Shown here in pieces: positions 16,015 to 34,887 of a DNA stretch of 64,000 nt (the stretch's first letter is position 1; each line of letters opens with the position of its first letter). The position numbers were made by a program, and so were the translations under genes. Origin of the DNA: an uncultured Actinomycetes bacterium (GTDB lineage: Bacteria > Actinomycetota > UBA4738 > HRBIN12); contig CAWHTI010000002.1 in NCBI GenBank assembly GCA_963832225.1, positions 298-64,297 of the forward strand, written 5' to 3'. The notes under the pieces are model-generated. The model worked only from the letters and a program-made list of their open reading frames with translations. It was not told the DNA's origin and did not search any database.

Positions 16015-16040
16015 TGCAGAATTACGACGAGGAATGAGAC

Positions 16041-16775: not shown

Positions 16776-17972
16776 ATCATGAAGCTCACCACGCGAGCTC
16801 GAGGATCTCCATCACCTGGGCCGTCGGTCGTCACCGGCTTCGGGTTGGTCTTCATCGGCGGGTCGCGCAGCGATTTCGCGGCGATGTCGTCGAGCTGCTC
16901 GCGCTTGATGCCGACGTCGCGCAGCCGCGTCGGCACGCCGAGCTTTGTCGCAAAGGCAAGGATTGCGTCGGCGAGCTTGTCGCCGGCAACGCCGATCACG
17001 TCGCCCGCATGGGCCTGTCGCGCGGCGTTCGCATCGTAGTTCCAGCGCAGCACCGAGGGCAGGCAGACGCCGGTGGTGTGGCCGTGCGGCACGCCGTAGC
17101 CGCCGATCACGTGACCGATGGCATGGCTGGCGCCGACCGGCACGCCGCTGGTGCCGCCGAAGATCGACAGCCACATGCCGAACTGGCAGTCCATCCGGAG
17201 TTTCAGATGTCGTTGGCCCGCCGAGCTGCGGCAGCGAGGTGTAGAGCAGTTTCAGCGCCGACACCGAGGCGGCATCCGCGAGCGGCGGCGCTTCAACGCG
17301 CAAAGCCGTTCCACGGCGTGGTCGACCGCCTTCATGCCGGTCGCGAGCAGGAGCGGGAGCGGCGAAGCCAGCGTCGCGGCCGGATCGAGCACCACCACCT
17401 GCGGCACGAACAGCGGGTTCGCGAACGATTCCTTCACCAGCCGCGCGGGTCGGTGACGCCGGCATACCAGGTGAATTCGGCGGCGGAAAACATCGTCGGC
17501 ACCGCCAGCATGCGGATGCGGTCCCGGCATCGTCCGGATAGTGGCTCGGGTCGCCCTGCCGTCCGCCGCGATAGGGGTCCATCTCGCTTCGCGTCCGTTC
17601 AGCCCGTGCCACAGGCACAGCAGCATCGCCTTGGTCGCGTCGACCACCGAGCCGCCGCCGACCGCGACCAGCAGATCGGCTTTGGCCTCGCGCGCCGCTG
17701 GCGGCGCCCTCGATCACGCAACTGCGCGGGGTGTGCGCGGTGATGCCGGAATAGAGGCCGACGAATTTGTCGCCGAGCGCCCGGCCGATTTCGCGCGGCA
17801 GCGCGTTGTCGCCGGCAAGCGAGCCGCTGGTGGTGATGAAGATGCGCGACTTGCCGAGCTTTTGCGCCTCCTCGACGATCACCTCGGCCGCCGGCCGGCC
17901 GTGCACGACGCGCTCCTGCAGGAAATTGCGCTGGATGCCGGGTGTCAGCGATTGTGCCGGTTTGTCGAGCAT
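16772..17972 (-). pseudogene. Iron-containing alcohol dehydrogenase family (maleylacetate reductase-like), frameshifted
   Basis: Pieces are MLDKPAQSLTPGIQRNFLQERVVHGRPAAEVIVEEAQKLGKSRIFITTSGS..; VDATKAMLL..VVVLDPAATLASP..TGMKAVDHAVE; and C-terminal HAIGHVIGGYGVPHGHTTGVCLPSVLRWN. These lie in three minus frames. Confidence 0.7.
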
Positions 17973-18056
17973 GACCTGTTCTCTTTCATCGGTTGCCGGC
18001 GATGATGCAGCAAAGCCTGCAAGCGCGCCAGTTTGGCCGGGCAGGGGAGCCAAACG

Positions 18057-18083
18057 AAAACGCCCGGCCTGCGCCGGGCGTTT
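18057..18083 (-). terminator. Rho-independent terminator after the DppA-type binding-protein gene
   Basis: The sequence aaaacgcccggc-ctgc-gccgggcgttt has an 8-bp GC stem. On the minus strand it is followed by a T-tract. Confidence 0.75.
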
Positions 18084-18107
18084 CCAATTGTTCGAGCGGA
18101 AGGCCGC

Positions 18108-19809
18108 TCAGTAACCCATCTTCTTCTTCAGGTCCTGGTCGATCCAGAGGCGGGAATAGATCGGCCACGGGCGCACGGCGCCTGCGGTGTGCTCGCCATT
18201 GTAATTCTTCACCCACGGCCACCACGCGGTGAACGCCTTTGCCGTCGGCATCCAGATGTGCGGCGCCTTGTCGAGGATCTCGCGCGTCAGCTCGCGGATG
18301 GCGGCCTTGCGCTTGTCCTCGTCCGGCTCCTGCTGCATCGCCCGCACCTTCTTGTCGAACTCCGGATCGTTGTACATCGACGGATTCCAGAGCTGTCCGC
18401 CGACAAAATTCTTGAAGATGGCGAGCTGCGGATTGCTGTGGCCGATGTTCATGAAGTAGCCGGCCGCGTGCGTCTTGGTGCTCATCGCCGAGAGGAACGC
18501 CGCGTATTCCAGCGGCTGGATCTCGATCTTGACGCCGACCTGCTCAAGGTAGGCGGCGACCAGCGGCAGCAGGTCCAGATGCTGACGAGTTGGCGGGCGC
18601 GACCTGCACCTTGAAGGTGAAGCCGTTCGGATAGCCTGCCTCGGCCAGCAGCTTCTTGGCCTTCGCCGGGTCGTACGTGAACAGCTCCTTCACCGAGGCC
18701 GGCATGGCGCTCAACGGCTCATAGTAGCCCTCGTAGGCCGGATGCATCGGATAGGCGAGCAGCTCGGCGTTGCCGTTGTAGAAGGCCTTGATGATCTCTT
18801 CCTTGTTCACCGCCATGTTGAGCGCGCGGCGGACGCGGACGTCGTCGAACGGCTTCTGGTCGTTACGGAGCACCATCATGGTGCCGTAGAAGCTGACGCG
18901 CGGCAGCCACTTGATCTGAGGGTTCGTCTTCAGCTGGTCCATGTCCTGCCAGCTGAGCGTCTCCAGGATATCGATCTTGCCGGTGCGGAAGGCGGTGACG
19001 CGCGTGGAGTCGTCGCGGATGATGCGATAGACCACCTTGTCGACGAACGGCAGCTTGAACTCGGCTTCGCCGATCTTCTCCTTGTCCCAGTAGTCTGGCC
19101 GCTTCGTGTAGGTATGCGAGTTGCCGGGCACGTATTCGGTGAGCGCGAACGGGCCGGTGCCGGTCGCGTTCTTCCAGTCGGCTGCGCCGGCCGTCGCCAC
19201 TTCCTTCGGCATGATCGACGAGTTGTAGCCGTAGCCGATCCAGAACGGCCAGTCGGAGACGAAGTCCTTCATGTAGTAGACGACGGTGTACTTGTCGCGC
19301 GCCTCGACCTTCGTGATCTCGGTGAGGATGCCGGGCGGCCGCTTCGGGCTCTCGGCGCGATAAGTGTAGTTCCAGACGACGTCATCGGCGGTGAGCTCGC
19401 GCGCCTCCATCACGCCGGCCTTGGCCGGAAACATGATGCCCTTCTTCAGCCTGATGACGACCGCCAGCGGATCCTTCTGCACTTCCCAGCTTTCGGCGAG
19501 CTCGCCCTTGATCGCATCGGTCGGGATCCAGGCGTCGGCATGGAAGGCGTATTTGCCGCCATTGCGCGTGCCCTTGGAGAGGTCGGCGGTCAGCAGCATC
19601 TCATACATGCCGCCGGCGTCATGATTGATCTTCCAGGGCCAGTCCTTGTGGTCCCAGCTCAGCGCCGACAGGGTCGCGAAGATCGTGGCGACCTCCAGCG
19701 TCCCGCCATATTGCGGTTTCTCGGCGTTCTGGGCGAATGCATTCCCCGAGAGCAGCAAGGCTGCGCCGAATGCGCCGGCCTTCAACCAGCGATCCATTTT
19801 GAGCGACAT
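18108..19809 (-). pseudogene. ABC substrate-binding protein, family 5 (peptide/nickel, DppA-like), frame hop near ~18540-18600
   Basis: Signal peptide MSLKMDRWLKAGAFGAALLLSGNAFAQN is followed by PQYGGTLEVATIF..WDHKDWPWK..FVDKVVYRIIRDDSTRVTAFRTGKIDI. The C-terminal 125 aa are in ORF 18108..18485. The RBS is acGGAGGa. Confidence 0.8.
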
Positions 19810-20055
19810 GGAAATCCTCCGTAGCGTGATGCGGGGCGGCCGCTCTTGATCGGCGGCATCATCGGGTGCGAAGTCTAGGCCGATGCGTTGCATCGCGGAA
19901 GACCTCGCATGGGGTTCGATCGACCATTTTCAACGTCGCGAGGCAGGTGCGACAAAACGGAAGCTCAAGTCCGTTCCGCGGTGCGAAAGGCATCTTGCGA
20001 AGCAAGGGCCGTCATTGCATCCTTCACACCTCGCAGCAGCCAAGAAGGAACAGCG

Positions 20056-21409
20056 ATGAACGTTGTCGAAAACCTGATCGCCGACAAGGCGCTGGATGAA
20101 GCTGTGCGCGATGCGCGGACGGCCTATGTGGCGCGCAATCCGGCGAGCGCGAAGCAGTACGCTGCGGCGTCCGAAGTCATGCCTGGCGGCAACACGCGCA
20201 CGGTGCTGTTCTACGATCCGTTCCCGCTGACGATCCTGCGCGGCGAGGGCTGCGAGGTTTTTGACGCCGACGGCCACCGCTATTTCGATTTCATGGGCGA
20301 ATACACCGCGGGCCTTGCGGGCCATTCCAACCCGGTGATTGCGGAAGCGATCAAGCATGCGGTTGACAACGGTCTCAGCCTCTCTGGCCACACCCGCGTC
20401 GAATCCGAGTTCGCCGAAATCGTCGCGCGGCGCTTTCCGGCGATGGAGCTGCTGCGCTTCACCAACTCCGGCACCGAGGCGACGCTGCTGGCGCTGACGC
20501 TGGCGCGCATCACGACGGGCCGAAAGAAGGTGATGGCGTTCGACGGCGGCTATCACGGCTCCGTCTTCGTGTTCAAGGATGCGGTCAACCAGGTCAACGT
20601 GCCGTTCGACTGGGTGTTCGCGCCGTACAACGACGCAGCCGCCGCCGCAAAACTGATCGCGCAGCACAAGGACGAACTCGCGGCGGTGATCGTCGAGCCG
20701 ATGCAGGGCTCTGGCGGCTGCATCCCGGCCGAGCAGGAGTTTCTGTCGACGCTGCGCAAGGAGACCGAGAAGGCCGGTGCGCTGCTGGTGTTCGACGAGG
20801 TCATGACTTCGCGCCTTGCGCCGGGCGGCCTGCAGACGCGCTATGGCATCCGTCCCGACCTGATGACGCTCGGAAAATATGTCGGCTGGCGGCATGTCGT
20901 TCGGCGCCTTCGGCGGCCGGGCAGACCTGATGCAGCGGTTCGATCCGCGGCAGGCCGGTGCGCTTGGTCACGCGGGCACGTTCAACAACAACGTGCTCAC
21001 CATGTCGGCGGGCATCGCCGCGATGACCAGGGTCGTTACGCAGGAGAGGCTCGATGCGGTCAATGCCCGCGGCGATGCGCTGCGCACGCGGCTGCAGGGG
21101 CTTTGCCGTGAGCACAGTGCCCCGATTTGCGTCACTGGCATCGGCTCTCTGTTCACGATTCACGGTGTGGCGGGTCCGGTCCGCTCCAATGCGGACATCA
21201 CCGCACAGGACCAGCGGATCAAGGAACTGATGTTCTTCGATCTGCTGGAGCAGGGCATCTATCTGGCCCGGCGCGGCATGGCGGCGCTGTCGTTTGAGAT
21301 CAACGATGTCGCCTGCGATGCTTTTGCCGACGCATTCGACCAATTTCTCAAGCGACGCGCAGCGTTGTTTGCTACAGACGCGACCAGCCTACGCCGCGCC
21401 CGCGGCTAG
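20056..21409 (+). pseudogene. Class-III aminotransferase (glutamate-1-semialdehyde aminomutase-like), one frame hop near ~20885
   Basis: Pieces are MPGGNTRTVLFYDPFPL..DADGHRYFDFMGEYTAGLAGHSNPVI..FTNSGTEATLLAL..FDGGYHGS..LVFDEVMTSRLAPGG..DLMTLGKYVG then GMSFGAFGG..HAGTFNNNVLTMSAG. Confidence 0.8.
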
Positions 21410-21450
21410 TTCGCGTCCAATAAACGCGCAAAAATTGCAGGAGAAGAACA

Positions 21451-22458
21451 ATGCGCTCCGATCGCCGACCCATGTCCAATCCAAGCCGCCGTGCCGTGCT
21501 CGCCGGCGGCGCTGCCGCGCTGTCGCTGCCGTTCGTCGGGCGCGCATCGGCCCAGGCGCCGTGGCCGAGCCGTGTCGTCAAGGTGGTCGTGCCGTTCGCG
21601 CCGGGCGGCACCACCGACATCCTCGGCCGGCTGATGGCGCAAAAGCTGTCGGAGGAGTACGGCCAGCAGTTCATCGTCGAGAACAAGGCCGGCGCCGGCG
21701 GCAACATCGGCGCTGATGCGGTCGCAAAGTCCGATCCCGACGGCTACAACTTCGTCATCGGCACGCCGGGGCCGCACGTCATCAACCAGTATATCTACAA
21801 GAACCAGCCATTCGACGGCACGAAGGATATCGTGCCGGTCATCGTCATCGCCCGCGTGCCGAACCTGATCTCGGTCAATCCGGAGGTGAAGGCCAAGACC
21901 CTGCAGGAGTTCATCGCGCTGGCGAAAGCCAACCCGGGCAAACTCTCCTATGCCTCGCCGGGCAACGGCAGCACCGGGCATGTGGCGACCGAGCTGTTGA
22001 AGTCGATGGCGGGCATCGATCTCGTGCACGTCCCGTATCGCGGCAGCGCGCCAGCGCTGACCGACGTGATGGGTGGCCGGGTCGAGATGTCGCTCGACAA
22101 TCTGCCGGCGGTGCAGCCGTTCGTGGAGGGCGGCAAGCTGCGTCCGCTCGCGGTGACCACCGCAAAACGCTGGCCGGAGCTGCCGGACGTGCCGACCGTC
22201 GCAGAGGCGGGCGTGCCCGGCTACGAGGCGTCGTCCTGGTTCACGATTGCGGCGCCTGCGAAGACGCCGGCCGACATCATCGCAAAAGTGAACAAGAGCG
22301 TGAACACCTACATGGCCGACAAGGACATGATCGCGAAAATGCGCAAGCTCGGCGCCGATCCGGTCGGCGGCTCGCCCGATGACATGGCGAAGCTGATGGC
22401 GGACGAGAACGTGAAGTGGAAGAAGGCGATCGAGTTCGCAGGGCTGAAGCCGGAGTAG
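21451..22458 (+). CDS. Bug-family (TctC-like) tripartite tricarboxylate transporter substrate-binding protein
   Basis: Intact 335-aa ORF with Tat-like signal SRRAVLAGGAAALSLPFVGRASAQ, then VVPFAPGGTTDILGRLMAQKL..ENKAGAGGNIGA..PDGYNFVIG..YASPGNGSTGH..VHVPYRGSAPALTDV. Confidence 0.85.
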   Translation: MRSDRRPMSNPSRRAVLAGGAAALSLPFVGRASAQAPWPSRVVKVVVPFAPGGTTDILGRLMAQKLSEEYGQQFIVENKAGAGGNIGADAVAKSDPDGYNFVIGTPGPHVINQYIYKNQPFDGTKDIVPVIVIARVPNLISVNPEVKAKTLQEFIALAKANPGKLSYASPGNGSTGHVATELLKSMAGIDLVHVPYRGSAPALTDVMGGRVEMSLDNLPAVQPFVEGGKLRPLAVTTAKRWPELPDVPTVAEAGVPGYEASSWFTIAAPAKTPADIIAKVNKSVNTYMADKDMIAKMRKLGADPVGGSPDDMAKLMADENVKWKKAIEFAGLKPE

Positions 22459-22467
22459 GCGATAGCC

Positions 22468-22560
22468 TGTAGCCCGGATGAAGCGAAGCGAAATCCGGGG
22501 CTGAGTCCCGCGATCGATCGCTGATCAGCCCGGATTGCGCTGCGCTTCATCCGGGCTACA
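22468..22560. repeat. REP-like 32-nt inverted repeat (Bradyrhizobiaceae-type palindrome) between convergent genes
   Basis: Arm tgtagcccggatgaagcgaagcgaaatccggg (22468-22499) pairs with arm cccggattgcgctgcgcttcatccgggctaca (22529-22560). There are 2 mismatches and a 29-nt loop. One frame reads the familiar PDCAALHPGY pseudo-peptide. Confidence 0.8.
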
Positions 22561-22562
22561 AA

Positions 22563-24053
22563 CTACTTCGGAATCCTCGCCTTCAATTCCGGAATGAACG
22601 GCAGCATGGTCATGTCGAGGCACGCCGGGCCCGGCGCGTCGACGTCGATGATCTCGGTGCAGATCGCGTCGAACGCCGCGCGAAAATGGTTCTTCGCCTT
22701 CACGAACAGCAACTGCTCCTTCTCGATCTCGATGCCGTGCAGGTGAAAGAACGCCGGATCGTTGGCCGGCGCCACGTGCTCGGTGACGATGATGCGGATG
22801 TTGCCTGACTGCAGCAGCGCGGTGCGGCCGCAGCGCAGCTCGATGCCAGTCTCCATCGGGCCGATGTTGCGGAACACGCCGTCCGTCAGCCTGACGACCG
22901 TCGCCTCAACCGCGACCGGCGCGCCATAATCCTTCATCTCCTTGCCGCCGAGCGTGATGGTGCCGAGGTTCTTGCCCACGCCCGCGCGCCAGGCCGCGTC
23001 GACGACGGCCGGATCGGTGAAAGCCGCGAAGACCACCGGCCGGTTGGGCTTTGCCGCGACCAGCGCGCGGAACATTTCCGGCGTGTCGTTGATGCCGCCG
23101 GAATAAGGATTGTCGCCGGGGTCAGTCACCGCAAGCAGGCCGGGCTTGTTGGAGGCAAGCGCACGGGCGACGCCGGCCGCAGCCGTCGGCAGCGAGATCA
23201 TGAATTCCGGCTGCTTCCGCTTGAGCTCGTCGCCGATCCTGCGCGCGATCTGCTCCGCCTTCGCAGCGTCGCCATCGGTCACGACAAGCGCGCAGCCGCC
23301 GGTGCCCGGCGTGTTGGCGAAGGGAAAGCCGCCGAACACGGTCGCTTCCAGCACGCCCGGCTCCCTGCGCTGCTCGGCCGCGAATTCTTCCAGATCGCGC
23401 ATCGGCCCTTCCTTGGTGCGCATGTTGAAGCTCGGCAGCAGCAAACCCTCATTGAGGATGCGGCAGACCGGTTTGATCTCGCCGGCCACCGTTCGCTCCA
23501 GCACGCTCAGCACGCGCCAGGCGGTCTCGCGCATGTCGATGTGCGGGTAGGTGCGGTAGACGCTGCCTGTCGTCAGGTAGTTTGACAGCTCGTCGGCGAG
23601 GTTGCCGTGAATGTCGAAGCTGGCGCCGATCGGGACGATCGGTTGAATCTTCCGGATTTCCTGCAAAAGCTCGACCTCAGGATCTTCGCGCTTCGTCGTG
23701 ACCCCGGCTCCGTGCAGTGATAGGTAGATCGCGTCGAACTTTTGGTCCTTGAGGTCCGCCAGGGTCTCCTGGAGGAACGCGGTGAACACCTCGTCGTCGA
23801 TCTGGCCGGCAGGCGAAGCCGACGCACAGCGGAACACCTCCACATCCCAATCCGGATACTTTTCGGCGAACTCGATGACGGCGCGGAGCTCGCTTTCCTG
23901 GGCGGTATGGTTCAGGGCGTCCTGGCCGCGGCGCCATTCCCGCCGCGCGAACGCGGCGCGATCGGCGAGCAGGGGGCTGAACGAGTTGCCCTCATACCAG
24001 AAGCGGGCGACAGCGAGGCGGCGGCGTTTTTCGAGTCCGTTCTTTTCGACCAT
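22563..24053 (-). CDS. M81-family metallopeptidase (MlrC-like)
   Basis: Intact ORF: RLAVARFWYEGNSFSP..DAIYLSLHGAGVT..ASFDIHGNL..YRTYPHIDM..GGFPFANTPGTG..VTDPGDNPYSGG..VKAKNHFRAAF. The start is taken as MVEKNG (24053). Confidence 0.8.
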   Translation of the reverse strand: MVEKNGLEKRRRLAVARFWYEGNSFSPLLADRAAFARREWRRGQDALNHTAQESELRAVIEFAEKYPDWDVEVFRCASASPAGQIDDEVFTAFLQETLADLKDQKFDAIYLSLHGAGVTTKREDPEVELLQEIRKIQPIVPIGASFDIHGNLADELSNYLTTGSVYRTYPHIDMRETAWRVLSVLERTVAGEIKPVCRILNEGLLLPSFNMRTKEGPMRDLEEFAAEQRREPGVLEATVFGGFPFANTPGTGGCALVVTDGDAAKAEQIARRIGDELKRKQPEFMISLPTAAAGVARALASNKPGLLAVTDPGDNPYSGGINDTPEMFRALVAAKPNRPVVFAAFTDPAVVDAAWRAGVGKNLGTITLGGKEMKDYGAPVAVEATVVRLTDGVFRNIGPMETGIELRCGRTALLQSGNIRIIVTEHVAPANDPAFFHLHGIEIEKEQLLFVKAKNHFRAAFDAICTEIIDVDAPGPACLDMTMLPFIPELKARIPK

Positions 24054-24173
24054 TGGCGGGTTTCTTAAATCCTCGTTTGAAGGCAGAATGTGTTTCCGCA
24101 GAATGCCTTGCATGGCTGTTCTTCAACGCCGTCGATAGCACGCCGCAAACGCCAAAATCAGAAAGAAGACGAG

Positions 24174-25082
24174 ATGACACGCATTCTTCCACGGCAGATC
24201 GGGCTCGAGCTTCCGGTCGCCGTCGGCGGCAAGGGCATCGAGTTGTTCGATTCGACGGGCAAGGCGTACATCGACGCCTCGGGTGGCGCTGCGGTGTCGT
24301 GTCTCGGTCACGGCCATCCGGACGTGAACGCCGCGCTGCATGCGCAGGTCGACCAACTCGCCTACACCCATTCGAGCTTCTTCACGACAGAAGTCGCCGA
24401 AGCGCCTCGCCGACACGCTGATCGCGGACGCGCCGAAGGGGCTGTCGCACGTCTATTTCGTCAGCGGCGGTTCGGAGGCCGTCGAAGCCTCGCTGAAGAT
24501 GGCGCGGCAGCATTTCGTCGAGATCGGCCAGCCGCAGCGGACGAAGGTGATCGCGCGCCGGCAGAGCTATCACGGCAACACGCTGGGAGCGCTGGCGACC
24601 GGCGGCAACGAGCTGAGGCGGACCCAGTTCAAGCCGCTGCTGATCGAAACGGCGCATGCCGATCCGTGCTTTGCCTACCGCTTCAAGGAGCCGGGCGAGA
24701 GCGACGAGGCGTATGCGGTGCGGGCCGCGCAATCGCTCGAGGACAAGATCCTGGAGCTCGGCCCTGACAAGGTGATCGCGTTCGTGGCCGAGACCGTGGT
24801 CGGCGCCACGTCCGGAGCGGTGCCGCCGGTCGCCGACTACTTCAAGCGCATCCGCGCGATCTGCGACCGCTACGGCGTGCTGTTGATCCTCGACGAGGTG
24901 ATGAGCGGCATGGGCCGCACCGGCACGCTGCATGCCTGCGAGCAGGAGGGCATTGCGCCGGACCTGATCACCATCGCCAAGGGACTCGGCGGCGGTTATC
25001 AGCCGATCGGCGCGGTGTTGATCGGGCAAAAGATATTCGATGCCTTCGACAAGGGCTCAAAGGTGTTCCAGCATGGGCAGAC
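24174..25082 (+). pseudogene. Class-III aminotransferase, 3'-truncated at the mosaic junction; one frame hop near ~24400
   Basis: Pieces are [43 protein letters not shown] / [74 protein letters not shown]. Homology then stops with no stop codon. Confidence 0.8.
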
Positions 25083-26591
25083 CCGTCCTCCCATGGCTCG
25101 CGCCATGATCCCCTTGAGCTCGGGCTCGGTGGACAGGAAGCGGTCCTCCAGCGGCCTGGTCCACGTGAGTCCCAGCGCCGCCGTCCCGCGCGGGATGATC
25201 GTGATGCGGTGCACCGGATCGGAGTCCGCCGTGAAGTGCGCGACGAGCGCGTGGCCCATCTCGTGGAACGCCACGCGCGTCTTCACCTTGTCGCTCATGA
25301 CCCGCGACTTGCGCTCCAGGCCCACGGACGCGCGGTCGATCGCCTCCTCGAGCTCCGCGGCCGTCACCGCGTTCTTCTCACGGCGGGCGGCCAGCAGCGC
25401 GGCCTCGTTCACGACGTTCGCGAGATCCGCGCCCGTGAAGCCCGGCGTGCGCGCCGCGATCGTCTTGAGGTCCACGGACGGGTCCAGTGCCACGCCGCGA
25501 GCGTGGACACGCAGGATCTCCTCACGACCGTGCAGATCAGGCCGGTCGACGACGACCTGGCGGTCGAACCGACCCGGTCGCACGAGGGCCGGGTCCAGCA
25601 CGTCGGGCCGGTTCGTGGCGGCCATGATGATCACGCCCTTGCTGGCGTCGAAGCCGTCCATCTCGACCAGCAGCTGGTTCAGCGTCTGCTCGCGTTCGTC
25701 GTGGCCGCCGAAGCCCGAGCTCATGGCACCCGCGCGTCCCTTGCCGATCGTGTCGATCTCGTCCAGGAACACGAGCGCCGGCGCCTTCTCCTTCGCCTGC
25801 TGGAAGAGCTCGCGCACCCGCGCCGCGCCCAGCCCGACGAACATCTCCACGAACTCCGAGCCCGACATGAAGAAGAAGGGAACGTTGGCCTCACCGGCCA
25901 CGGCACGCGCCAGGAGCGTCTTGCCGCACCCGGGCGGGCCCAGGAGCAGGACGCCCTTCGGGATCCTGCCGCCCAGCCGCTGGTACTTCTTCGGGTTCTT
26001 CAGGAAGTCGACGATCTCGCGGAGCTCGTCCTTCGCCTCGTCCACGCCGGCGACGTCGGCGAACGTCGATTTCATCTCCTTGCGGTCGTACACCTTGACC
26101 TTATTACGGCCGAGGTTCAGCGCCGATCCGGCTCCCCCGCCCATCCGCCGGAAGATGAAGAAGTAGACGAGCAGCATCACCAGCACGAAGGGCAGGATGT
26201 TGATCAGGAGGCTGGTCAGGACGCTCGGTTGGGTGAACTTGTACTGGACGCCGTTCGCCTCCAGGAAGTCGGTGAACGTGGTGTCCAGGGTGAAGTTCGG
26301 CGAGAGCTGCGCGGTGAAGGCCTGTTCCTGGCCGTTATCGTCGAACGTCCCCGAGATGTCGGAGCTCGAGATCGTGAGGGTGCCGGTGATCGCGCCGTCC
26401 TCGACGAGCTGGGTGAACCGGGAGTAGTCGATCGTGGACGTTCCCGCGCTCGAGAGCATGTAGTTGAAGACGATCAGGATGAGCAGCAGGATCGGGATCG
26501 ACAGCCACGGCGAGAACTTCGGGCGCGGCATGCCGGGCCCACCCTGGCCGTCGCCTCCCAGCCCACGCTTGTTGTTGCCGTTGTCCGCCAT
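25081..26591 (-). pseudogene. ftsH: ATP-dependent zinc metalloprotease FtsH, 3'-truncated at the mosaic junction
   Basis: It has two TM segments, Walker [19 protein letters not shown], Walker [34 protein letters not shown] and zinc site HEMGHALV. Homology ends at ..[10 protein letters not shown]. The start is MADNGNNK (26591). Confidence 0.9.
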
Positions 26592-26697
26592 GGCAAGCAT
26601 CTTCCCACCGGCCGCGATATGTGACAGCCGAGCGTGCGTGGGCACGGATCGGCGACGCCGGCGACGAGGCCCGGGGATCCGCCGCCGCGGGTGTACC

Positions 26698-27303
26698 GTG
26701 CTAGGCGTGTCGACCGCGCAACAGGCACCGCCCGAGGACGACCCGGCGCTGCGCGCCCGGTTCGAGCGCGACGTGATGCCGCTGCTCCCGGGCCTGTACT
26801 CCTCCGCCTTGCGCATGACCCGCAACCCCGCCGACGCCGAGGACCTCGTGCAGGACACGGTGCTGCGCGCCTATCGCGGCTTCGGCGGGTTCCAGGAGGG
26901 CACGAACCTGAAGGCCTGGCTGTACCGGATCCTCACGAACAGCTTCATCAACACCTACCGCAAGAAGCAGCGGCAGCCGGCCACGGTCGAGGGACCCGAC
27001 GACCTCGACGAGTGGTATCTGTTCGATCGGCTCGGCTCCCGCAACGTGGAGCCCTCCGCCGAATCCGCCGTCCTCGAGCAGCTCCCCGACGAGGCCGTCC
27101 AGCGGGCCCTCGAGGCGCTGCCGGAGGGGTTCCGGATGGCCGTGCTGCTCGCGGACGTCCAGGGCTTCTCGTACAAGGAGATCGCCGAGATGCTGGACAT
27201 CCCGATCGGCACCGTGATGTCGAGGCTGCATCGGGGAAGGAAAGCCCTCGAGAAGGCGTTGTGGGACACAGCCGTCGAACGGGGGATCGTCCGTGAAACC
27301 TGA
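26698..27303 (+). CDS. sigH: ECF sigma factor of the SigH/SigR type
   Basis: Pieces are [102 protein letters not shown]. It is followed by a ZAS anti-sigma gene. The start is GTG 26698 or 26707. Confidence 0.85.
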
Positions 27304-27547
27304 ATGTCAGCAGGCCCTGCAGGACATCGAGCGCTTCCTGGACGGCGAGATGGACCAGCCGGAGCGGGGTCTGATCGACGAGCACCTGCAAGGGTGCACC
27401 CCCTGCATGGAGCGCGCCGACTTCAAGCGGTCCGTGAAGGAGCTGATCGCCTCGAGATGCGGATGCGACGACCTCCCCTCGGGCCTCAGGGAGCGGATCT
27501 CCGGATTGCTCCAGGGCTCGCCCCGAACCGCCCCGCGCGACGCCTGA
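27293..27547 (+). CDS. rsrA: Zinc-binding anti-sigma factor (RsrA/RshA, ZAS family)
   Basis: The protein reads [52 protein letters not shown] and carries the H-x3-C-x2-C ZAS motif. Its start overlaps the sigma-gene stop. Confidence 0.85.
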
Positions 27548-27613
27548 TCCCGCCTCGCGCCGGCGACCGAACCTCCGCACCGTCCGCGTCGAAAGGGGCG
27601 TCGAGGGGAGGTC

Positions 27614-27811
27614 GTGAAATCGATGAAGGGCACACGTCCCGGCAAGCTCCCACCACCGAATCACATCGAGCCCGTCGGTCGCGTCTGCGACGAACCGGAC
27701 TGTGAGACGGCGCTCTCGATCTACAACCGCAGCACACGCTGCTGGCAGCACACCGACATCGTCTTCCCGAACTACCGCGGCAAGCGGCTGTCGCCCGGTC
27801 ACTCCTCGTAA
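27614..27811 (+). CDS. Small Cys/His-containing hypothetical protein (65 aa)
   Basis: ORF with RBS gaggggagg and a GTG start. It contains VCDEPDCETALSIYNRSTRCWQH (C-x4-C ... C-x2-H). No family was recognised. Confidence 0.4.
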   Translation: MKSMKGTRPGKLPPPNHIEPVGRVCDEPDCETALSIYNRSTRCWQHTDIVFPNYRGKRLSPGHSS

Positions 27812-27858
27812 GATCCTCGCGCGCTCCGTCTGGCTAGGATGCCCGCGGGAGGTGGTCG

Positions 27859-28581
27859 GTGGAGCTCGGCACGGTGCTCGGGGTGTGGGCCCACCCCGAC
27901 GACGAGACGTATCTGTCGGCGGGCCTCATGGCCGCGGCGGTCCGCGCAGGGTCGCGCGTGGTGTGCGTGACCGCCACTCGCGGTGAGGGGGGCTCGACCG
28001 ACGAGGTGCGCTGGCCGCCGGTCACGATGGCGGCGGTCCGGGAGCGCGAGCTGCTGCGATCGTTCGAGATCCTGGGGGTGGCGGATCATCGCTTCCTCGA
28101 TCTGCCGGATGTCGACATGCAGACCGGCTTGCCGGAGTCCGGCTCCGCGGACGTCGCCCGCGTGATGGCGGAGGTCCGGCCCGACACAGTGCTGACGTTC
28201 GGGCCCGACGGGATGACCGGACACCGGGCGCATCAGGACGTGAGCCGCTGGACCACCGAGGCCTTCGAACGGTCCGCCCCGCCGGGCGCCCGGCTGCACT
28301 ACGCCACGACGTCGCCGGCGTGGGCGGAGGAGTTCGTCCCCGAGATGAACCGGTTCGACGTGTACCTCCCGGGCACGCCCCCGGTCACGTCGGTGGAGGA
28401 GATGAGCATCCGCCGCGAGCTCGATCCGGATCTGCTCGAGCTGAAGCTTCGGGCGATCGCGGAGCACGAGAGCCAGGTGGGGGCGATGATCGCGGCGTTC
28501 GGCCCGGACTTCTTCCGCCGCGCCATGCGCGAGGAGTGCTTCCGACCGGGCGGCCACGTCGGCGAGGGAGGGGCGCGGTGA
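27859..28581 (+). CDS. PIG-L/LmbE-family N-acetylglucosaminyl deacetylase (MshB/Mca-like fold)
   Basis: The protein reads VLGVWAHPDDETYLSAGLMAAAV..VVCVTATRGEGG..FGPDGMTGHRAHQDV. The AHPDDE and H-x2-H motifs are typical of PIG-L proteins. Confidence 0.8.
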   Translation: MELGTVLGVWAHPDDETYLSAGLMAAAVRAGSRVVCVTATRGEGGSTDEVRWPPVTMAAVRERELLRSFEILGVADHRFLDLPDVDMQTGLPESGSADVARVMAEVRPDTVLTFGPDGMTGHRAHQDVSRWTTEAFERSAPPGARLHYATTSPAWAEEFVPEMNRFDVYLPGTPPVTSVEEMSIRRELDPDLLELKLRAIAEHESQVGAMIAAFGPDFFRRAMREECFRPGGHVGEGGAR

Positions 28582-30086
28582 CGGACCGGCCGGAGCCGAT
28601 GCGCGACCTGGACTGGGATCCGCAGCGAGCCCGTGCGTTCACCGATCGCGCCGCGGATCTCTTCGAGGAGCTGCTGCAACGGGTACGGGACCTGCCCGTC
28701 ACGAACAAGGTGACGACCCCGGACGTCCGCGACGCCGTGGCGATCGACATCCCCGAGGAGCCGATGCCGCAGGACGCGCTGATCTCCTACCTGCACGACA
28801 TGGTCTTCGAGCGGTCGATGTATCCCGGACACCCCCGGTTCATGGCGTACGTGAGCGGTGCTGGGACGATCCCCGGCGCGGCCGCCGATCTGCTCGCCGC
28901 CGGGTTGAACATGAACGCGGGTGGGTGGCTGCTCTCGCCGTCCGCCTCGGAGATCGAGCGACACCTCACCGCCACCTTCGCGCGATGGTTCGGGATGCCA
29001 TCCGAGGCGGGAGGCATCCTCGTCTCGGGCGGCGCGATGGCGAACTTCGTCGGGCTGAAGGTGGCGCGCGACCGCCACGCCGGGTGGGACGTCCGCTCCG
29101 ACGGCGTGGCCGGACACCCTCGGCTGGCGATCTATCTGTCCGCCGAGACGCACGTCGTCAGCTCCCGTGCCGCGGACATGATGGGTCTCGGAACGGACGC
29201 CGTGCGGAAGATCCCCGTCGGCGCCGACTTCCGGATCCGGGTGGACGAGCTCCGCGCCGCGATCCGCCGAGACCGTGACGCCGGCGTGCGTCCCATCGCC
29301 GTGGTCGGCTCCGCCGGGACGGTCGCCACCGGAGCCGTAGATCCCCTGGAGACGCTCGCGGATCTCTGTGCGGATGAGGGACTCTGGTTCCACGTCGACG
29401 CCGCGTACGGCGGTCCGGCCGCGTTCACCGAGGATCTCGCGCCGCTGTTCGCCGGCATCCACCGCGCGGACTCGATCGCCTTCGACCCGCACAAGTGGCT
29501 GTACACGCCGCTGTCCGGCGGCTGCGTACTGGTGCGCGATCTGCAGTTCCTCTCGGACTCCTTCTCGATCACCGCGACCTACGTCCATCAGGACAAGGAG
29601 CGCACGGGCCGCGGCGTCGACGGCTCGCAGCTCGGACCGGAGTTCAGTCGCGCCAACCAGTCCCTGAAGGTCTGGATGTCGCTGCTCGCGCACGGCAGGC
29701 GGGCCTACGTCGCCCGGATCTCCCACGACGCCGCGCTCGCCCGGTACCTCGGCGCCCGGGCGCAGGAGCGACCCGACTTCGAGCTCGTCACACCGGTCGG
29801 GTTGTCGATCTGCTGCTTCCGATACGTTCCGCCGGATCTTCCGGACCACCCGGAGCGGGAACCCTATCTCTCGGTGCTGAACGAACGGTTGATGACGGAG
29901 GCACAGCTCGACGGCCGCACCTTCTTCTCGAACGCCATACTCGACGAGCGCTTCGTGCTGCGGGCCTGCATCGTGAATTTCCGCACCGAGGCCGACGACC
30001 TGGATGCGACGCTCGACGTCGCCGCGGAGATCGGCGGCCGGCTGGATGCGGAGCTCCGCCCGGCGGAGCTCGGCGGCGGCGCGTGA
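28578..30086 (+). CDS. Group II pyridoxal-phosphate-dependent decarboxylase (aromatic amino acid/glutamate decarboxylase family)
   Basis: The protein reads HPRFMAYVSGAGT..GILVSGGAMANFVGLKVAR..AVVGSAGTVATGAVDPL..LWFHVDAAYGG..SIAFDPHKWLYTP, with the DPHK lysine motif. Its GTG start overlaps the PIG-L stop (GTGA). Confidence 0.85.
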   Translation: MTDRPEPMRDLDWDPQRARAFTDRAADLFEELLQRVRDLPVTNKVTTPDVRDAVAIDIPEEPMPQDALISYLHDMVFERSMYPGHPRFMAYVSGAGTIPGAAADLLAAGLNMNAGGWLLSPSASEIERHLTATFARWFGMPSEAGGILVSGGAMANFVGLKVARDRHAGWDVRSDGVAGHPRLAIYLSAETHVVSSRAADMMGLGTDAVRKIPVGADFRIRVDELRAAIRRDRDAGVRPIAVVGSAGTVATGAVDPLETLADLCADEGLWFHVDAAYGGPAAFTEDLAPLFAGIHRADSIAFDPHKWLYTPLSGGCVLVRDLQFLSDSFSITATYVHQDKERTGRGVDGSQLGPEFSRANQSLKVWMSLLAHGRRAYVARISHDAALARYLGARAQERPDFELVTPVGLSICCFRYVPPDLPDHPEREPYLSVLNERLMTEAQLDGRTFFSNAILDERFVLRACIVNFRTEADDLDATLDVAAEIGGRLDAELRPAELGGGA

Positions 30087-30841
30087 CGCAGCATGTCCTG
30101 GGGTTGCTCGGCTCGGGCGAGTTCCAGCCGTGGGCCGGGGAGGTGGACCTGGCGTTGCTGGATCGTGCGCGCACCGGCGACGGACGGGCGCTGGTGCTGC
30201 CGACCGCGTCGGCGCCCGAGGGCGAGGATGTGTTCGGCCGATGGGCGGCTATGGGCCTGGCGCACTACCAGCGCCTGGGGGTCACCGCGGAGCTCGTGCC
30301 GCTCCGCACCCGCGAGGACGCCGAGGACCCCGAGCTCGTGGCCCGGCTCTCGGAGGCCTCGCTGGTCTTCTTCTCCGGCGGCAATCCGGCGTATCTGACC
30401 GCGACGCTGACGGGCACGGCGTTCTGGACCGCGGTCCTCGAGGCATTGGGCCGCGGCCTCGCCTATGGGGGATGCAGCGCCGGGGTCCAGTGTCTGGGCG
30501 AGCGAGCCCTGGACGCGGCAACCGGCACGTTCGGCCCCGAGGTCTGGAAGCCCGGCCTGGGTCTGTTCACAGGCGTCTGGTTCGGCCCGCACTGGGATGC
30601 GCTCGACCGCTACGTGCCGGGCCTGTCCGGATTCATCCGCGGGTCCGTTCCTCCGGGCGACCTGCTGGTCGCGATCGACGAGGACACGGCGATGATCGGC
30701 GACGGGCTCGGGTGGGAGGTGCTCGGCTCGGGGAGCGTCCACCTGTCCTGTGACGGAACCTGGACGGACCACCCCGCCGGCGCGCGCTTCACGCAGGCGC
30801 TCGGGAGCGGGACGGCCGAGCCTCCGCACCCGGAGCGGTAG
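30083..30841 (+). CDS. Peptidase S51-family (cyanophycinase/peptidase E-like, class-I glutamine amidotransferase fold) protein
   Basis: The protein reads LGLLGSGEFQPWAGEVD..LVLPTASAPEGEDVF..ASLVFFSGGNPAYL..GLAYGGCSAGVQCLGE. Its GTG start overlaps the decarboxylase stop (GTGA). Confidence 0.6.
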   Translation: MTQHVLGLLGSGEFQPWAGEVDLALLDRARTGDGRALVLPTASAPEGEDVFGRWAAMGLAHYQRLGVTAELVPLRTREDAEDPELVARLSEASLVFFSGGNPAYLTATLTGTAFWTAVLEALGRGLAYGGCSAGVQCLGERALDAATGTFGPEVWKPGLGLFTGVWFGPHWDALDRYVPGLSGFIRGSVPPGDLLVAIDEDTAMIGDGLGWEVLGSGSVHLSCDGTWTDHPAGARFTQALGSGTAEPPHPER

Positions 30842-30875
30842 GCTTCCCGGCCCGGCATCCGCGAGGAGGAGGACC

Positions 30876-31535
30876 GTGCCAACCGCAGGCCTGACCCGCA
30901 CGAGCCCGGCCTCGGAGCGCGCGCCGGAGATCGTGCGACGCCTGACGGACGCGTATCCGGATGCCACGGTCGCGCTGCGCGCCTCCTCTCCGCTGGAGAT
31001 GCTCGTGGCCACGATCCTGTCCGCGCAGTGCACCGACGAGCGGGTCAACGCGGTCACCGAGACCCTGTTCGTGAAGTACCGGACGCCGCAGGACTACCTC
31101 GACGTCCCGGAGGAGGAGCTCGCGGCCGACATCAAGCCCACCGGTTTCTTCAATCAGAAGACCAGATCGATCCGGGGCGCCGCGCAACGGATCGTCGACG
31201 AGTACGGCGGGCGGGTACCCGACACCATGGAGGAGCTCGTGACCCTCCCAGGCGTCGCCCGCAAGACGGCGAACATCGTCCTGGGGAACAGCTTCGGCAC
31301 CGTCGTCGGGATCGCTGTGGACACGCACGTCCGCCGCGTGTCGCAACGCCTCGGATTCACGACGCAGGAGGACCCCGACAAGATCGAGCGGGACCTGATG
31401 GCGCTGCTGCCGACGGACCAATGGTTCCCGTTCACGTACCGGCTCATCGATCACGGGCGCGCGGTGTGCGTGGCCCGCACGCCGAAGTGCGAGATCTGTC
31501 CGGTGAGCGACCTCTGCCCATCGAGCCTGGTGTGA
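30876..31535 (+). CDS. nth: Endonuclease III
   Basis: The protein reads LVATILSAQCTDERVN..LPGVARKTANIVL..VDTHVRRVSQRLG and ends with the C-x6-C-x2-C-x5-C iron-sulfur cluster loop (CVARTPKCEICPVSDLC). The RBS is gaggaggagga. Confidence 0.9.
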   Translation: MPTAGLTRTSPASERAPEIVRRLTDAYPDATVALRASSPLEMLVATILSAQCTDERVNAVTETLFVKYRTPQDYLDVPEEELAADIKPTGFFNQKTRSIRGAAQRIVDEYGGRVPDTMEELVTLPGVARKTANIVLGNSFGTVVGIAVDTHVRRVSQRLGFTTQEDPDKIERDLMALLPTDQWFPFTYRLIDHGRAVCVARTPKCEICPVSDLCPSSLV

Positions 31536-31536
31536 C

Positions 31537-31839
31537 TCAGACTGCCACGAGCTCGTCGGGCGAGGGATCGCCGCGGCCGGCCGCGTTTCCGGCCGCGGCC
31601 GCGGCGGCACGGCGGCGGGCGCGACGGATCTCGCGCCGCTCCTCCTCGTCCAGCCCACCCCAGACGCCGGCGTCCTGGCAGGTGTCGAGGGCCCACGCGA
31701 GGCACTCCGAACGCACCGCACAGCGTGTGCACACCGCCTTCGCGCGCACGGTCTGCTCGACCGCCGGGCCGGTGGTGCCCACCGGGAAGAACAGGTCGGG
31801 ATCCTCCTCCAAGCAGGAGGCCCGTTCGATCCACTCCAT
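31537..31839 (-). CDS. whiB: WhiB-family transcription factor
   Basis: The protein reads MEWIERASCLEEDPDLFFP..AKAVCTRCAVRSECLAWAL..GVWGGL..ERRE. It has four Cys plus the G[VI]WGG turn. Confidence 0.85.
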   Translation of the reverse strand: MEWIERASCLEEDPDLFFPVGTTGPAVEQTVRAKAVCTRCAVRSECLAWALDTCQDAGVWGGLDEEERREIRRARRRAAAAAAGNAAGRGDPSPDELVAV

Positions 31840-31928
31840 CGACGTGCCGCCTTTCCTGACCCTCGGTTCAGGCCCGTCCGAGGCCCTGAACAGAGCGGAA
31901 TCATATGTGCCGACGTCTGGGGAGTGCA

Positions 31929-32717
31929 ATGGCTGAACGACGATTCAGCCGGAATCTGGCGTCCCCGCTGGTCGTCGCCCATCGGGGTGCGTCCCTGGAG
32001 CGGCCCGAGAACACCGTGCCGGCGTTCGAGGGCGCGCTCGACGCCGGCGCCGACGCCGTGGAATTCGATGTGCGGATGAGCGCGGACGGGCACCCCGTCG
32101 TCATGCACGACCCGTCGGTCGACCGCACGACGGACGGCACCGGCCTGGTGCGCGACCTGAACCTGGCCGAGATCAAGCGGCTGCGCATCCGATCCTCCTC
32201 CGGCGAGGACCTGGAAATCCCGACGCTGGCCGAGACGCTGGGCCTGCTCTCCGGCCGCGCCGCGATCGACGTGGAGATCAAGAACCTTCCGGGCGAGCCC
32301 GACCACGAACCGGCCCGCGAGCGCGCCGTGGAAGCGACGCTCCGCGCGGTGGACGAGGCTGCGTTCGTCGGCGCCGTCCTGCTCTCCAGCTTCAACCCGC
32401 GGTCCATCGCACGCTCCCGCGAGCTCGATCCCGCGGTGCCCACGGGACTGCTCGCCCTCGAGGCCATGCCGCTCGACGACGCCATCGCGCTGGCCGCGGT
32501 AGGCGGGCACGAGTGGGTGCTGCCGGCAGCCGGCGCCGTGCTCGCTGCTGGGCCGGAGGCGATCGGCCGCGCGCACGATGCCGCGCTCCGGCTCGGGACG
32601 TGGATCGTCGACGACCCGGACGTCGCGGTCACGCTCGCGTCGTGGGGGATCGACGCGGTCGCCACGAACGATCCCGGCCGCGTCGTTCCGGCCGTGCGCA
32701 GCGTGGCCCCGAGGTGA
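31929..32717 (+). CDS. glpQ: Glycerophosphodiester phosphodiesterase
   Basis: The protein reads VVAHRGASLERPENTVPAFEGALDAGADAVEFDVRMSADGHPVVMHDPSVDRTTDGTG, the GDPD family signature. Confidence 0.85.
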   Translation: MAERRFSRNLASPLVVAHRGASLERPENTVPAFEGALDAGADAVEFDVRMSADGHPVVMHDPSVDRTTDGTGLVRDLNLAEIKRLRIRSSSGEDLEIPTLAETLGLLSGRAAIDVEIKNLPGEPDHEPARERAVEATLRAVDEAAFVGAVLLSSFNPRSIARSRELDPAVPTGLLALEAMPLDDAIALAAVGGHEWVLPAAGAVLAAGPEAIGRAHDAALRLGTWIVDDPDVAVTLASWGIDAVATNDPGRVVPAVRSVAPR

Positions 32718-33124
32718 TGCGCTTGCGCCGACGCCGTCTGGCACCCGAGCTGCAGCCGGCCTTCGACGCGTTCGTGTCGGTCGTCGCGGCCGTGGAACGT
32801 GGCAAGGCCGCCCTGACCGAGTCGGTCCCCAGCACGCGGTTCGCCGGCCGGCCGCTCGCCGAGACCCTCCACGAGTTCGAACGGGAGCTGACCGAGGCGG
32901 ACGCCGGGATGCGGTCCTGGCGCCGTCCCGAGGTGCTCGCCGCCTGGGAAGCGGCCGACGGCGGGCTGCGGACCGCTCGTGAGCTGGCGGCGCGGCTCCG
33001 CCTCGAGGCGCCGGACCCCGGCGGGTTCGAGGGACTGATCGGACTGATCGGCGATCTGCTCGCACCGCTAGATGCCTTCGGCGCGGCGGGGCGGCGATTC
33101 TCCGAGCTTCGCAGGCGTGCGTGA
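32717..33124 (+). CDS. Hypothetical helical protein (135 aa), translationally coupled to glpQ
   Basis: Its ATG overlaps the glpQ stop (TGATG-type overlap at 32715-32719). No family was recognised. Confidence 0.4.
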   Translation: MRLRRRRLAPELQPAFDAFVSVVAAVERGKAALTESVPSTRFAGRPLAETLHEFERELTEADAGMRSWRRPEVLAAWEAADGGLRTARELAARLRLEAPDPGGFEGLIGLIGDLLAPLDAFGAAGRRFSELRRRA

Positions 33125-33157
33125 GGCGCGAACGGCCGGGGCGAACGAGTTCCGCCG

Positions 33158-33262
33158 TAGACACTTTGGACTAGTTCCGATGCAGCAGTACGCCACCGCG
33201 GCACATTGACCGAGCGTTCAGGGACGGTTTGACTCCGAGCGACGGGCGGGAGTCCCCCCGCT
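33158..33262 (+). promoter_or_regulatory. Conserved leader/promoter region upstream of BNR paralog 1
   Basis: Box TAGACACTTTGGACTAGTTCCGATG (33158-33182), CATTGACCGAGCGTTCA (33204-33220; TTGACC-17 nt-TTGACT) and GGGAGTCCCCCCGCT (33248-33262) recur colinearly at 34742-34846. Confidence 0.6.
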
Positions 33263-33302
33263 TGCGAGCGTTTCCCGTACGCGGGGAAAGGGAGGAGTCG
33301 GA

Positions 33303-34637
33303 ATGACTCGAAGGGCTCGATGGTCCGTACCGATCGCCATCGCGACGGTGCTGGCGCTGGCCGGCACCGCGTACGCGGCGATCACGATCTCACCGTCGTC
33401 CCCGGCGACGGCCGGCCAGAAGGTGGGTGGGAACTACACGTGGAACTACGGCAACTCGCTGGAGAAGTCCACGTGCGGCGGCACCACCTACCTGAACGCC
33501 CTCTACGCCACGGACCTGGTGAAGGGTGAGTACGCGAGCGACTCCGGCCCGTATCAGGGCGCTTATGCCACGCGCGCGAACATCGCGAACTCGCCGCTGA
33601 GCTGGAGTGCGCCGAAGCGGGTCAACCCCGGCACGCAGCACGCCGAGCGGACGACCCTGGCCGCTGACGGGAGCGACGTCTACTACGGCTACGTGTCGCA
33701 GGTCAGCTACGACGACTACGACCCGGCCGCGAAGCGCGTCTTCTACGTGAAGACGAGTCACGACTGCGGCGCGACGTTCGGCCCGGCCGTTCGCGTGTCG
33801 CCGGGCACCGGCCGCGTCGACTACCCGATCCTGGCCGCCGACAACGGCGTCGCGTACGCGATCTGGGTCAACGGCGCGAACGGCAACGTCCAGTTCGCCA
33901 AGAGCACGGACTCCGGCACCACCTGGCCGGCCACGACCGTCGGCACGACCACGTCGAGGAACCCCGACGACGTCGCGGAGGGCTACTACGGATATCCGAC
34001 CGTGGCGGCCTCCGGCGTCAACGTGGCGATCGGTTGGTACACCGACAATGCGGGCCGGCAGGTCATCCGTGGCTCGTCGAACTCCGGCACGAGCTTCGGA
34101 GCCGAGCAGGTCGCCACGGCTACGAGCCCGAACGACACCATCCACTACATGACAGGTGGTGGCCAGGAGGACGGCACCAACGACCGCGTCGCCCTCGCAT
34201 ACACCAGCAGCACCGGTGTGCACGTCCGCGTCTGGGACGGCTCGTGGGGCGCGCAGCAGACCGTGGAGTCCTACGGCTCGACGATCGGTGGCACGACCTT
34301 CTCGGGCAGCTACGGCCCGGCGCCCATCCCGTACGGGGCGAACGGCATCATGGTCGTGTACCCGAACTGCCAGGCGACGGCGCAGACCGCCAACGACTGT
34401 GACTATGCGCTGAACAAGGTGCGCACCTCGCTGGTCCTCGAGGACTCGGTCACCGGCGCGTTCGGTGACAGCACCCCTCGCGTGCTCGCGAGCGCGGTCA
34501 CGGATCGGTACCTGAACGACTCGGCATCGATCGTGACCAACGGCACCACGCGGTACGTCCTGTACAACGGATGGACGGCGAACTACTTCAACTACCGTCT
34601 CTTCCTGAAGCAGGCGTCGGGCACGGGCCCCTCGTAG
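33303..34637 (+). CDS. Secreted BNR/Asp-box repeat (sialidase-fold beta-propeller) protein, paralog 1
   Basis: It has signal peptide MTRRARWSVPIAIATVLALAGTAYA and Asp boxes SHDCGATF, STDSGTTW and SNSGTSF. It is a paralog of 34888..36255. Confidence 0.75.
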   Translation: MTRRARWSVPIAIATVLALAGTAYAAITISPSSPATAGQKVGGNYTWNYGNSLEKSTCGGTTYLNALYATDLVKGEYASDSGPYQGAYATRANIANSPLSWSAPKRVNPGTQHAERTTLAADGSDVYYGYVSQVSYDDYDPAAKRVFYVKTSHDCGATFGPAVRVSPGTGRVDYPILAADNGVAYAIWVNGANGNVQFAKSTDSGTTWPATTVGTTTSRNPDDVAEGYYGYPTVAASGVNVAIGWYTDNAGRQVIRGSSNSGTSFGAEQVATATSPNDTIHYMTGGGQEDGTNDRVALAYTSSTGVHVRVWDGSWGAQQTVESYGSTIGGTTFSGSYGPAPIPYGANGIMVVYPNCQATAQTANDCDYALNKVRTSLVLEDSVTGAFGDSTPRVLASAVTDRYLNDSASIVTNGTTRYVLYNGWTANYFNYRLFLKQASGTGPS

Positions 34638-34659
34638 GGATCCGGAGCACCGAACCCCA

Positions 34660-34691
34660 GGGCGGGGCGGCGCGCGAACGCCGCCCCGCCC
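34660..34691 (+). terminator. GC-rich stem-loop after BNR paralog 1
   Basis: The sequence gggcggggcggcg-cgcgaa-cgccgccccgccc has a 13-bp perfect stem. It begins 23 nt after the stop codon and has no T-tract. Confidence 0.55.
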
Positions 34692-34741
34692 GCCCCTCCT
34701 TCCCCGGTCTCGGGCCCCGGTCCCGGGTCCCGGGGCACGCC

Positions 34742-34846: not shown

Positions 34847-34887
34847 CTCCGGTCCGGCCCCCAGAGGGGCGGGGAGGAGGAAGGCGC

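Follow-up and report, generated by a model that had tools for sequence, protein, structure and literature searches.

Graph-based misassemblies usually arise in a repeat that is common to two genomes. In the GUNC paper, chimeras are traced to two sources, misassembly, which yields chimeric contigs, and mis-binning, which yields chimeric genomes and is the more common of the two (PMC8201837). Here we describe a junction in a 64 kb window (64,000 nucleotides, the whole stretch of DNA that was analyzed), where a class-III aminotransferase gene on the plus strand and an ftsH gene on the minus strand run into each other. From the evidence in the sequence, we consider it very probable that this junction is a non-biological join (a chimera, mis-binning or a concatenation) and not a feature of a living genome.

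Three sources within the window

Tetranucleotide z-score profiles were correlated between 5-kb pieces. The signatures divide the window into three sources, which we call blocks A, B and C:

1 to 4994, no strand: block A, from a very GC-rich actinobacterium; ebo-cluster-like genes (TatD-like, EboE, phosphodiesterase), heavily frameshifted
4995 to 25079, no strand: block B, about 20.08 kb, Xanthobacteraceae/Bradyrhizobium-like; several genes frameshifted
25080 to 64000, no strand: block C, from another actinobacterium

The GC content was 0.73-0.80 in positions 1-5000 (block A), 0.61-0.69 in positions 5000-25000 (block B) and 0.66-0.76 further right. Pieces from block B correlated with each other at 0.87-0.92 and those from block C at 0.83-0.93, compared to 0.56-0.72 between B and C. 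Block A correlated with C at 0.65-0.77 and with B at 0.57-0.69 and was therefore treated as a third source. Its best homologs are no more than 74% identical, and the named proteins among them come only from Actinomadura, Actinokineospora, Saccharothrix, Streptomyces and similar genera. By these measures block A is not a continuation of block C.

The strongest control for composition came from relatives of blocks B and C, whose DNA past the break has no homolog in the window. Beyond-break DNA of the alphaproteobacterial relatives correlated with block B at 0.92-0.95, which shows block B to be unameliorated Bradyrhizobium-type DNA. The corresponding DNA of the actinobacterial relatives correlated with block C at 0.91-0.96.

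The aminotransferase and FtsH are cut within their domains

The coding sequences on the two sides of the junction are as follows:

24174 to 24404, plus strand: class-III aminotransferase, N-terminal piece, frame +3; equivalent to residues 1-77 of the Shinella homolog (tblastn) and to positions 16-71 of PF00202
24391 to 25079, plus strand: class-III aminotransferase, middle piece, frame +1, after a frameshift; ends ..FQHGQT
25080 to 26600, minus strand: FtsH fragment, residues 1-507 of about 665; FtsH_ext, AAA, AAA_lid_3 and a partial Peptidase_M41

The aminotransferase matched positions 69-288 of the 403 in Pfam profile PF00202, positions 16-71 being supplied by the upstream piece in its different frame. 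The match ends on the final residue before 25083 and the C-terminal 115 positions of the profile are absent. Of NCBIfam PRK07483, positions 75-303 of 444 were covered. The annotated protein of Shinella sp. HZN7 (445 aa) is 80% identical to the aminotransferase; true similarity between the two ends at ..FQHG(H/Q)T, near residue 305 of the Shinella protein, leaving the window copy without about 140 C-terminal residues. No tblastn match to residues 313-445 was found anywhere in the 64 kb window. A tblastn search with the Shinella protein also placed a frameshift within the gene at about 24391-24425, which means that the ATG at 24340 is not the true start. Complete relatives are 431-445 aa long (431-433 aa among the relatives, 445 aa in Shinella). 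The fold-type I domain, about 430-445 aa when full-length, would be expected to lie in one frame; here the gene occupies two frames and its C-terminus is absent. As judged by its profile matches, the aminotransferase at the junction is a fragment of a true member of the PF00202/PRK07483 family.

The residue at which the window aminotransferase ends is also the last one of a JGI homolog (P0130, 303 aa). We considered whether this end is a natural terminus and rejected it, as P0130 has TAG in place of a Tyr codon and the remainder continues in frame to a normal C-terminus. Read in this way, the common end residue is a coincidence.

On the minus strand, Peptidase_M41 (PF01434) is represented only by positions 1-74 of 191, including HEMGH, and ends at 25080. 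FtsH covered positions 6-484 of 598 in TIGR01241. The fragment is 95% identical to residues 1-507 of a complete-length homolog (P0001, 665 aa), so about 158 residues are absent, and residues 509-665 had no tblastn match anywhere in the 64 kb window. Among the 120 best homologs, complete FtsH proteins are 642-702 aa long; a few others are partial and shorter (543-636 aa). A complete FtsH, an ATP-dependent zinc metalloprotease, would have all of Peptidase_M41 besides FtsH_ext, AAA and AAA_lid; what the window has is a fragment of a true FtsH.

FtsH is 95-98% identical to its relatives at the protein level, at 94% DNA identity, and has no internal stops, so decay did not follow the cut. Both gene fragments look recently functional.

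Both truncations fall inside the same four bases, 25080-25083, and neither gene has a stop codon of its own. An earlier, sequence-only reading of this DNA had proposed that the two genes are cut mid-domain at one point, and the ends of the profile matches (288 of 403 for PF00202, 74 of 191 for Peptidase_M41) bear this out. Nor did any homolog prove to end naturally at these residues, as seen from the lengths of complete FtsH (642-702 aa) and aminotransferase (431-445 aa) proteins and from the in-frame TAG of P0130.

The junction is a switch between two phyla

The features at the junction are:

25079 to 25083, no strand: breakpoint; alphaproteobacterial alignments end at 25079-25083 and actinobacterial alignments begin at 25080
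24340 to 26166, plus strand: artefactual read-through ORF, from the aminotransferase frame into the antisense of ftsH; homology ends at 25083
24999 to 26858, minus strand: artefactual read-through ORF, the ftsH frame plus 27 codons antisense to the aminotransferase; the part beyond about 26600 is also not FtsH

Seven loci aligned to the window as far as 25079-25083 and no further. These were two ENA 'contig_' assemblies (L003 and L004), the isolate Bradyrhizobium sp. LHD-71 (L006), two Microflora Danica MAGs (L007 and L015), a Xanthobacteraceae MAG (L008) and a Shinella plasmid. At least six of these alphaproteobacterial loci have several kb of their own sequence past the cut. In L003, the aminotransferase extends past this point, and TAXI-TRAP transporter genes come after it.

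On the other side, the closest FtsH proteins are borne by two actinobacterial (Actinomycetota) contigs from ENA metagenome assemblies (L001 and L002). Their alignments begin exactly at 25080, with 94% and 86% identity, respectively, and both are collinear with positions 25080-38746 of the window at 81-94% nucleotide identity. The order common to the two contigs and the window is sigma factor, zf-HC2 anti-sigma, PIG-L, PLP decarboxylase, peptidase S51, HhH-GPD, WhiB and GDPD. FtsH is complete in both contigs (642 and 665 aa) and is followed by GT2 and cNMP-binding genes. None of the GT2, cNMP-binding or TAXI-TRAP neighbors of the relatives is present in the window.

The break is placed most parsimoniously between 25079 and 25080, where Bradyrhizobium-like (alphaproteobacterial) DNA gives way without a seam to actinobacterial DNA. 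Base 25080 is a G, as in the actinobacterial relatives, whereas L003 and L004 have a C; this base fits the actinobacterial side and fixes the placement. Only the ACC at 25081-25083 is ambiguous and can be assigned to either side, so that any microhomology is at most 3 nt. There is no N spacer and no adapter remnant at the junction, and the join lies outside any repeat common to both genomes. A degenerate pattern spanning the junction had no match in 241 million JGI metagenome records. Nor did a 60-mer taken from just right of the junction occur in GTDB genome contigs or JGI metagenome contigs, and searches for identical copies of four proteins of the window (MlrC, PIG-L, zf-HC2 anti-sigma and PLP decarboxylase) gave no match. 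Illegitimate recombination, too, would be expected to leave a seamless join and no more than 3 nt of microhomology.

The two long ORFs exist as the earlier reading had described them and are artefacts, as it had held: there are no stop codons at the cut and each frame continues into the antisense of the other gene. The change in composition that it had placed at the same point was likewise found, with GC rising from 0.65-0.66 to 0.71 across the junction. That reading did not name the nature of the junction; the switch between two phyla is added here.

Block B and its left end

The search for domains in block B covered Pfam matches to 18 ORF translations that take in its main ORFs, and to the MlrC and junction aminotransferase ORFs, and positions 4995-12500 were read by eye in six frames. 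The genes identified were Amidohydro_2 (two copies), ECH (enoyl-CoA hydratase), the large subunit of a Mo-hydroxylase, a PAS histidine kinase, an FNR-like gene, Peripla_BP_6, Glyoxalase_3, SBP_bac_5, Aminotran_3 (class-III aminotransferase, two copies), TctC and MlrC. These are ordinary chromosomal metabolic genes, collinear with contigs from Bradyrhizobium/Xanthobacteraceae. Only metabolic, transport and sensor domains were seen in the block; there were no integrase, recombinase, transposase or conjugation domains. No tRNA was found near either junction, the only tRNA in the window being at 53844-53917, and no direct or terminal inverted repeats or target duplication were found to pair the region of about 4995 with that of about 25080.

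Two other possibilities for block B were considered and rejected. An inverted repeat at 4994-5155 and 15831-15991 might have marked the termini of an element, but both copies lie wholly inside block B and are the paralogous upstream regions of two Amidohydro_2 genes. No known plasmid matched the block as a unit; similarity was at the level of genes only, to rhizobial megaplasmids and chromids. A size of exactly 20,000 bp might have hinted at a deliberate splice; the actual size, about 20,085 bp, points neither way.

The other end of the block also cuts a gene:

4990 to 5004, no strand: left junction, between about 4994 and 4995; a TatD-like gene (minus strand) is cut, and a paralogous intergenic element lies rightward of about 5004

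In the TatD-like gene of block A, the match to homologs begins at HMTSRTTDDY, and the first 8 codons (MRIFDPHI) are absent. Rightward of about 5004 lies a paralogous copy of the intergenic element seen again at 15831-15991 in block B. The C-terminus of FtsH was not found beyond this far end of block B, and ftsH does not resume there. Both ends of the block thus cut genes. On the left the cut gene is not ftsH, so block B is not a simple insertion. The continuity of host sequence expected around a genomic island is also lacking, as the flanks differ in signature (0.65-0.77) and a different gene is cut at the left.

Quality of the sequence

Many genes in the window are divided over frames, among them EboE (three ORFs), the phosphodiesterase, MoCoBD_1, Amidohydro_2, SBP_bac_5 and both aminotransferases. 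Such splitting points to a metagenome assembled from noisy long reads. Among the alphaproteobacterial relatives, the closest come from Nanopore MAG projects, as Flye-type 'contig_' records (PMC12313526). Next to the junction, there were 3 frameshifts in 5 genes on the block B side, relative to the Bradyrhizobium isolate, and 0 in 13 genes on the block C side. Frameshift density, considered as a fingerprint for each block, changes sharply at the junction but is not decisive, since block C is noisy in turn at 48-58 kb.

Origin of the junction

The switch of lineage, the switch of composition, the two truncations, the absent halves of both genes and the absent hallmarks of mobile elements are all observed at this locus, and from them we infer that the join was made in silico, or while the library was prepared, and not in a cell. 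DNA of block B would have been set end to end with DNA of block C, and this might have come about by any of three routes: assembly of one chimeric contig out of long reads that were themselves chimeric or low in coverage, the writing of contigs from a mis-binned metagenome-assembled genome in direct succession with no spacer, or some other in-silico splice. Each block would end where its source molecule or contig ended, by chance within a gene. Lacking a stop codon there, the reading frames would then run into the GC-rich antisense of the opposite gene, producing the two spurious long ORFs. Since no repeat common to both sides lies at the join, classical graph misassembly is disfavored, and a chimeric long read or a plain concatenation is favored.

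It is very improbable, in our view, that the junction records a real and very recent horizontal transfer, in which about 20 kb of Bradyrhizobium-like chromosomal DNA entered an actinobacterial chromosome by illegitimate (end-joining) recombination, replaced native DNA and left both ftsH and the incoming aminotransferase truncated. The seamless junction and its possible microhomology of at most 3 nt are compatible with end joining, but integrase, transposase, tRNA, direct repeat and terminal inverted repeat are all absent. Relatives of the blocks do occur in environmental metagenomes and MAGs, some of them labelled soil, but the junction pattern was not found in the JGI metagenomes. The absence of decay in the truncated genes would suit a very recent event; however, the cell would have to make do with an FtsH that has lost the greater part of the protease domain. 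In actinobacteria this protein is, as a rule, important and encoded by a single gene copy. Moreover, the FtsH C-terminus is resumed neither at the other end of block B nor elsewhere in the window, and the signature of block A differs from that of block C, so the supposed host differs between the two sides. Block B itself is fully unameliorated, and its genes, ordinary chromosomal ones for metabolism, are collinear with Bradyrhizobium/Xanthobacteraceae contigs. We give slightly less credence still to the particular case of a soil actinobacterium that very recently, by end joining and with no help from a mobile element, took up unameliorated Bradyrhizobium-like chromosomal DNA (about 20 kb) and lost the protease domain of its FtsH in doing so. 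If it were true, an inter-phylum transfer of ordinary chromosomal genes would have been caught in the act, and element-free capture of DNA would be documented.

A rearrangement, inversion or deletion within one genome, which would make both genes genuine pseudogenes of a single organism, is barely credible: both genes are truncated and the aminotransferase is frameshifted too, as pseudogenes can be, but the two sides come from different phyla by homology, the tetranucleotide signature of each side fits its own relatives, the absent halves are nowhere else in the window, and the frameshifts resemble sequencing noise, scattered as they are over many unrelated genes.

If the junction is a non-biological join, as we think very probable, annotation should omit the two long ORFs across 25080 as spurious, and the truncated FtsH and aminotransferase would be neither pseudogenes nor fusion proteins. 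Claims of horizontal transfer, gene loss or a novel architecture made from this window would be wrong. Positions 1-4994 and 4995-25079 are probably not from the organism that owns 25080-64000. A foreign origin of 1-25079 would affect the taxonomy of the source genome, estimates of its completeness and contamination, and metabolic inference. The value of the junction would thus lie mainly in quality control.

Comparison with known systems

Block B resembles a horizontally acquired genomic island or integrative element in that its GC and tetranucleotide signature deviate over about 20 kb and it is flanked by sequence of another type. Unlike such an island, it contains neither an integrase nor a transposase, its ends are marked by no tRNA, att-type direct repeats or target duplication, and the cut host gene is not resumed. 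The flanks do not look like one genome, and the cargo is ordinary chromosomal metabolism, collinear with Bradyrhizobium/Xanthobacteraceae.

Natural convergent or overlapping genes lie tail to tail, with a common terminator or overlapping 3' ends, and the aminotransferase and ftsH resemble such pairs in that the two lie on opposite strands and face each other. In natural convergent pairs each C-terminus is complete and each gene has a stop codon, whereas here both genes stop mid-domain (288/403 of PF00202 and 74/191 of PF01434) and have no stop of their own.

With respect to chimeric contigs, the locus departs from the classical form in three ways: the join is not in a repeat common to the genomes, three sources rather than two meet within 64 kb, and the case for a chimera is made here from the sequence. 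In other respects it is like the chimeric contigs and mis-binned MAGs that have been described (PMC8201837): fragments of different organisms are joined or grouped, there is an abrupt change in the lineage of the genes, matched at that point by a change in composition, and the fragments end inside genes.

Left junction and sequence quality

A second junction lies on the left, at window 4990-5004, where block A (the GC-rich actinobacterial stretch) gives way to block B (the Xanthobacteraceae/Bradyrhizobium-like stretch). Block A stops about 8 codons short of the start of a minus-strand TatD-like gene, with block B from there on, and its tetranucleotide signature is unlike those of both block B and block C, the stretch from another actinobacterium. 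The genes of window 1-4994 are ebo-cluster-like (TatD-like, EboE (NF035939) and type I phosphodiesterase). EboE is broken into three ORFs in differing frames, and the GC3 phase changes every ~270 nt across window 1-4994, which points to very noisy sequence.

Frameshifts in block B were called against ORFs of the alphaproteobacterial isolate Bradyrhizobium sp. LHD-71, as follows.

18582: single frameshift in SBP_bac_5, vs LHD-71 ORF
20884: single frameshift in the second class-III aminotransferase (20029-21406), vs LHD-71 ORF
24391-24425: single frameshift in the aminotransferase cut at the right junction, vs LHD-71 ORF

Error density within one source, block C, is very uneven. While the 13 genes at 25-39 kb of the window are intact, window 48000-58000 shows 4-8 GC3 phase changes per 2 kb, and a solute-binding-protein gene at ~48.1-49.6 kb is broken into at least 5 frame segments.

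Other features of block C

A 444-aa gene without a Pfam domain (window 33303-34637, region 33083-34741) is also present in L002 and missing from L001, both Actinomycetota metagenome contigs collinear with the start of block C. It is adjoined by a paralog-like 495-aa ORF (26% identity). In window 34001-36000 the tetranucleotide correlation with the remainder of block C drops to 0.69. ARAGORN and Rfam found no RNA gene in the window besides the following.

53844-53917, minus strand: tRNA-Arg (CCG), ARAGORN and Rfam

A paired element upstream of Amidohydro_2 genes

An element of ~150 nt is present in two copies, which are 84-87% identical to each other.

5010-5155, plus strand: copy 1, upstream of an Amidohydro_2 paralog
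15831-15991, minus strand: copy 2, upstream of the other Amidohydro_2 paralog

Both copies contain a hairpin whose stem spans 27 bp (CTAGTGTCC...GGGACACTAG); an additional GACACTAG motif is also present in each. Folding gives a z-score of -4.8, and one compensatory change (G-C to U-A) distinguishes the copies. Neither Rfam nor the 86 retrieved loci contain the element, which may serve the two Amidohydro_2 genes as an operator or leader.

A look-alike end in a homologous aminotransferase

In the aminotransferase homologue on JGI contig L086 (2067-3410, Ga0502305_6483212), an in-frame TAG stands where the HGHTY motif has Tyr, so the called protein stops at the very residue where the truncated aminotransferase of the window breaks off. 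The remainder of the L086 gene continues in frame after the TAG.
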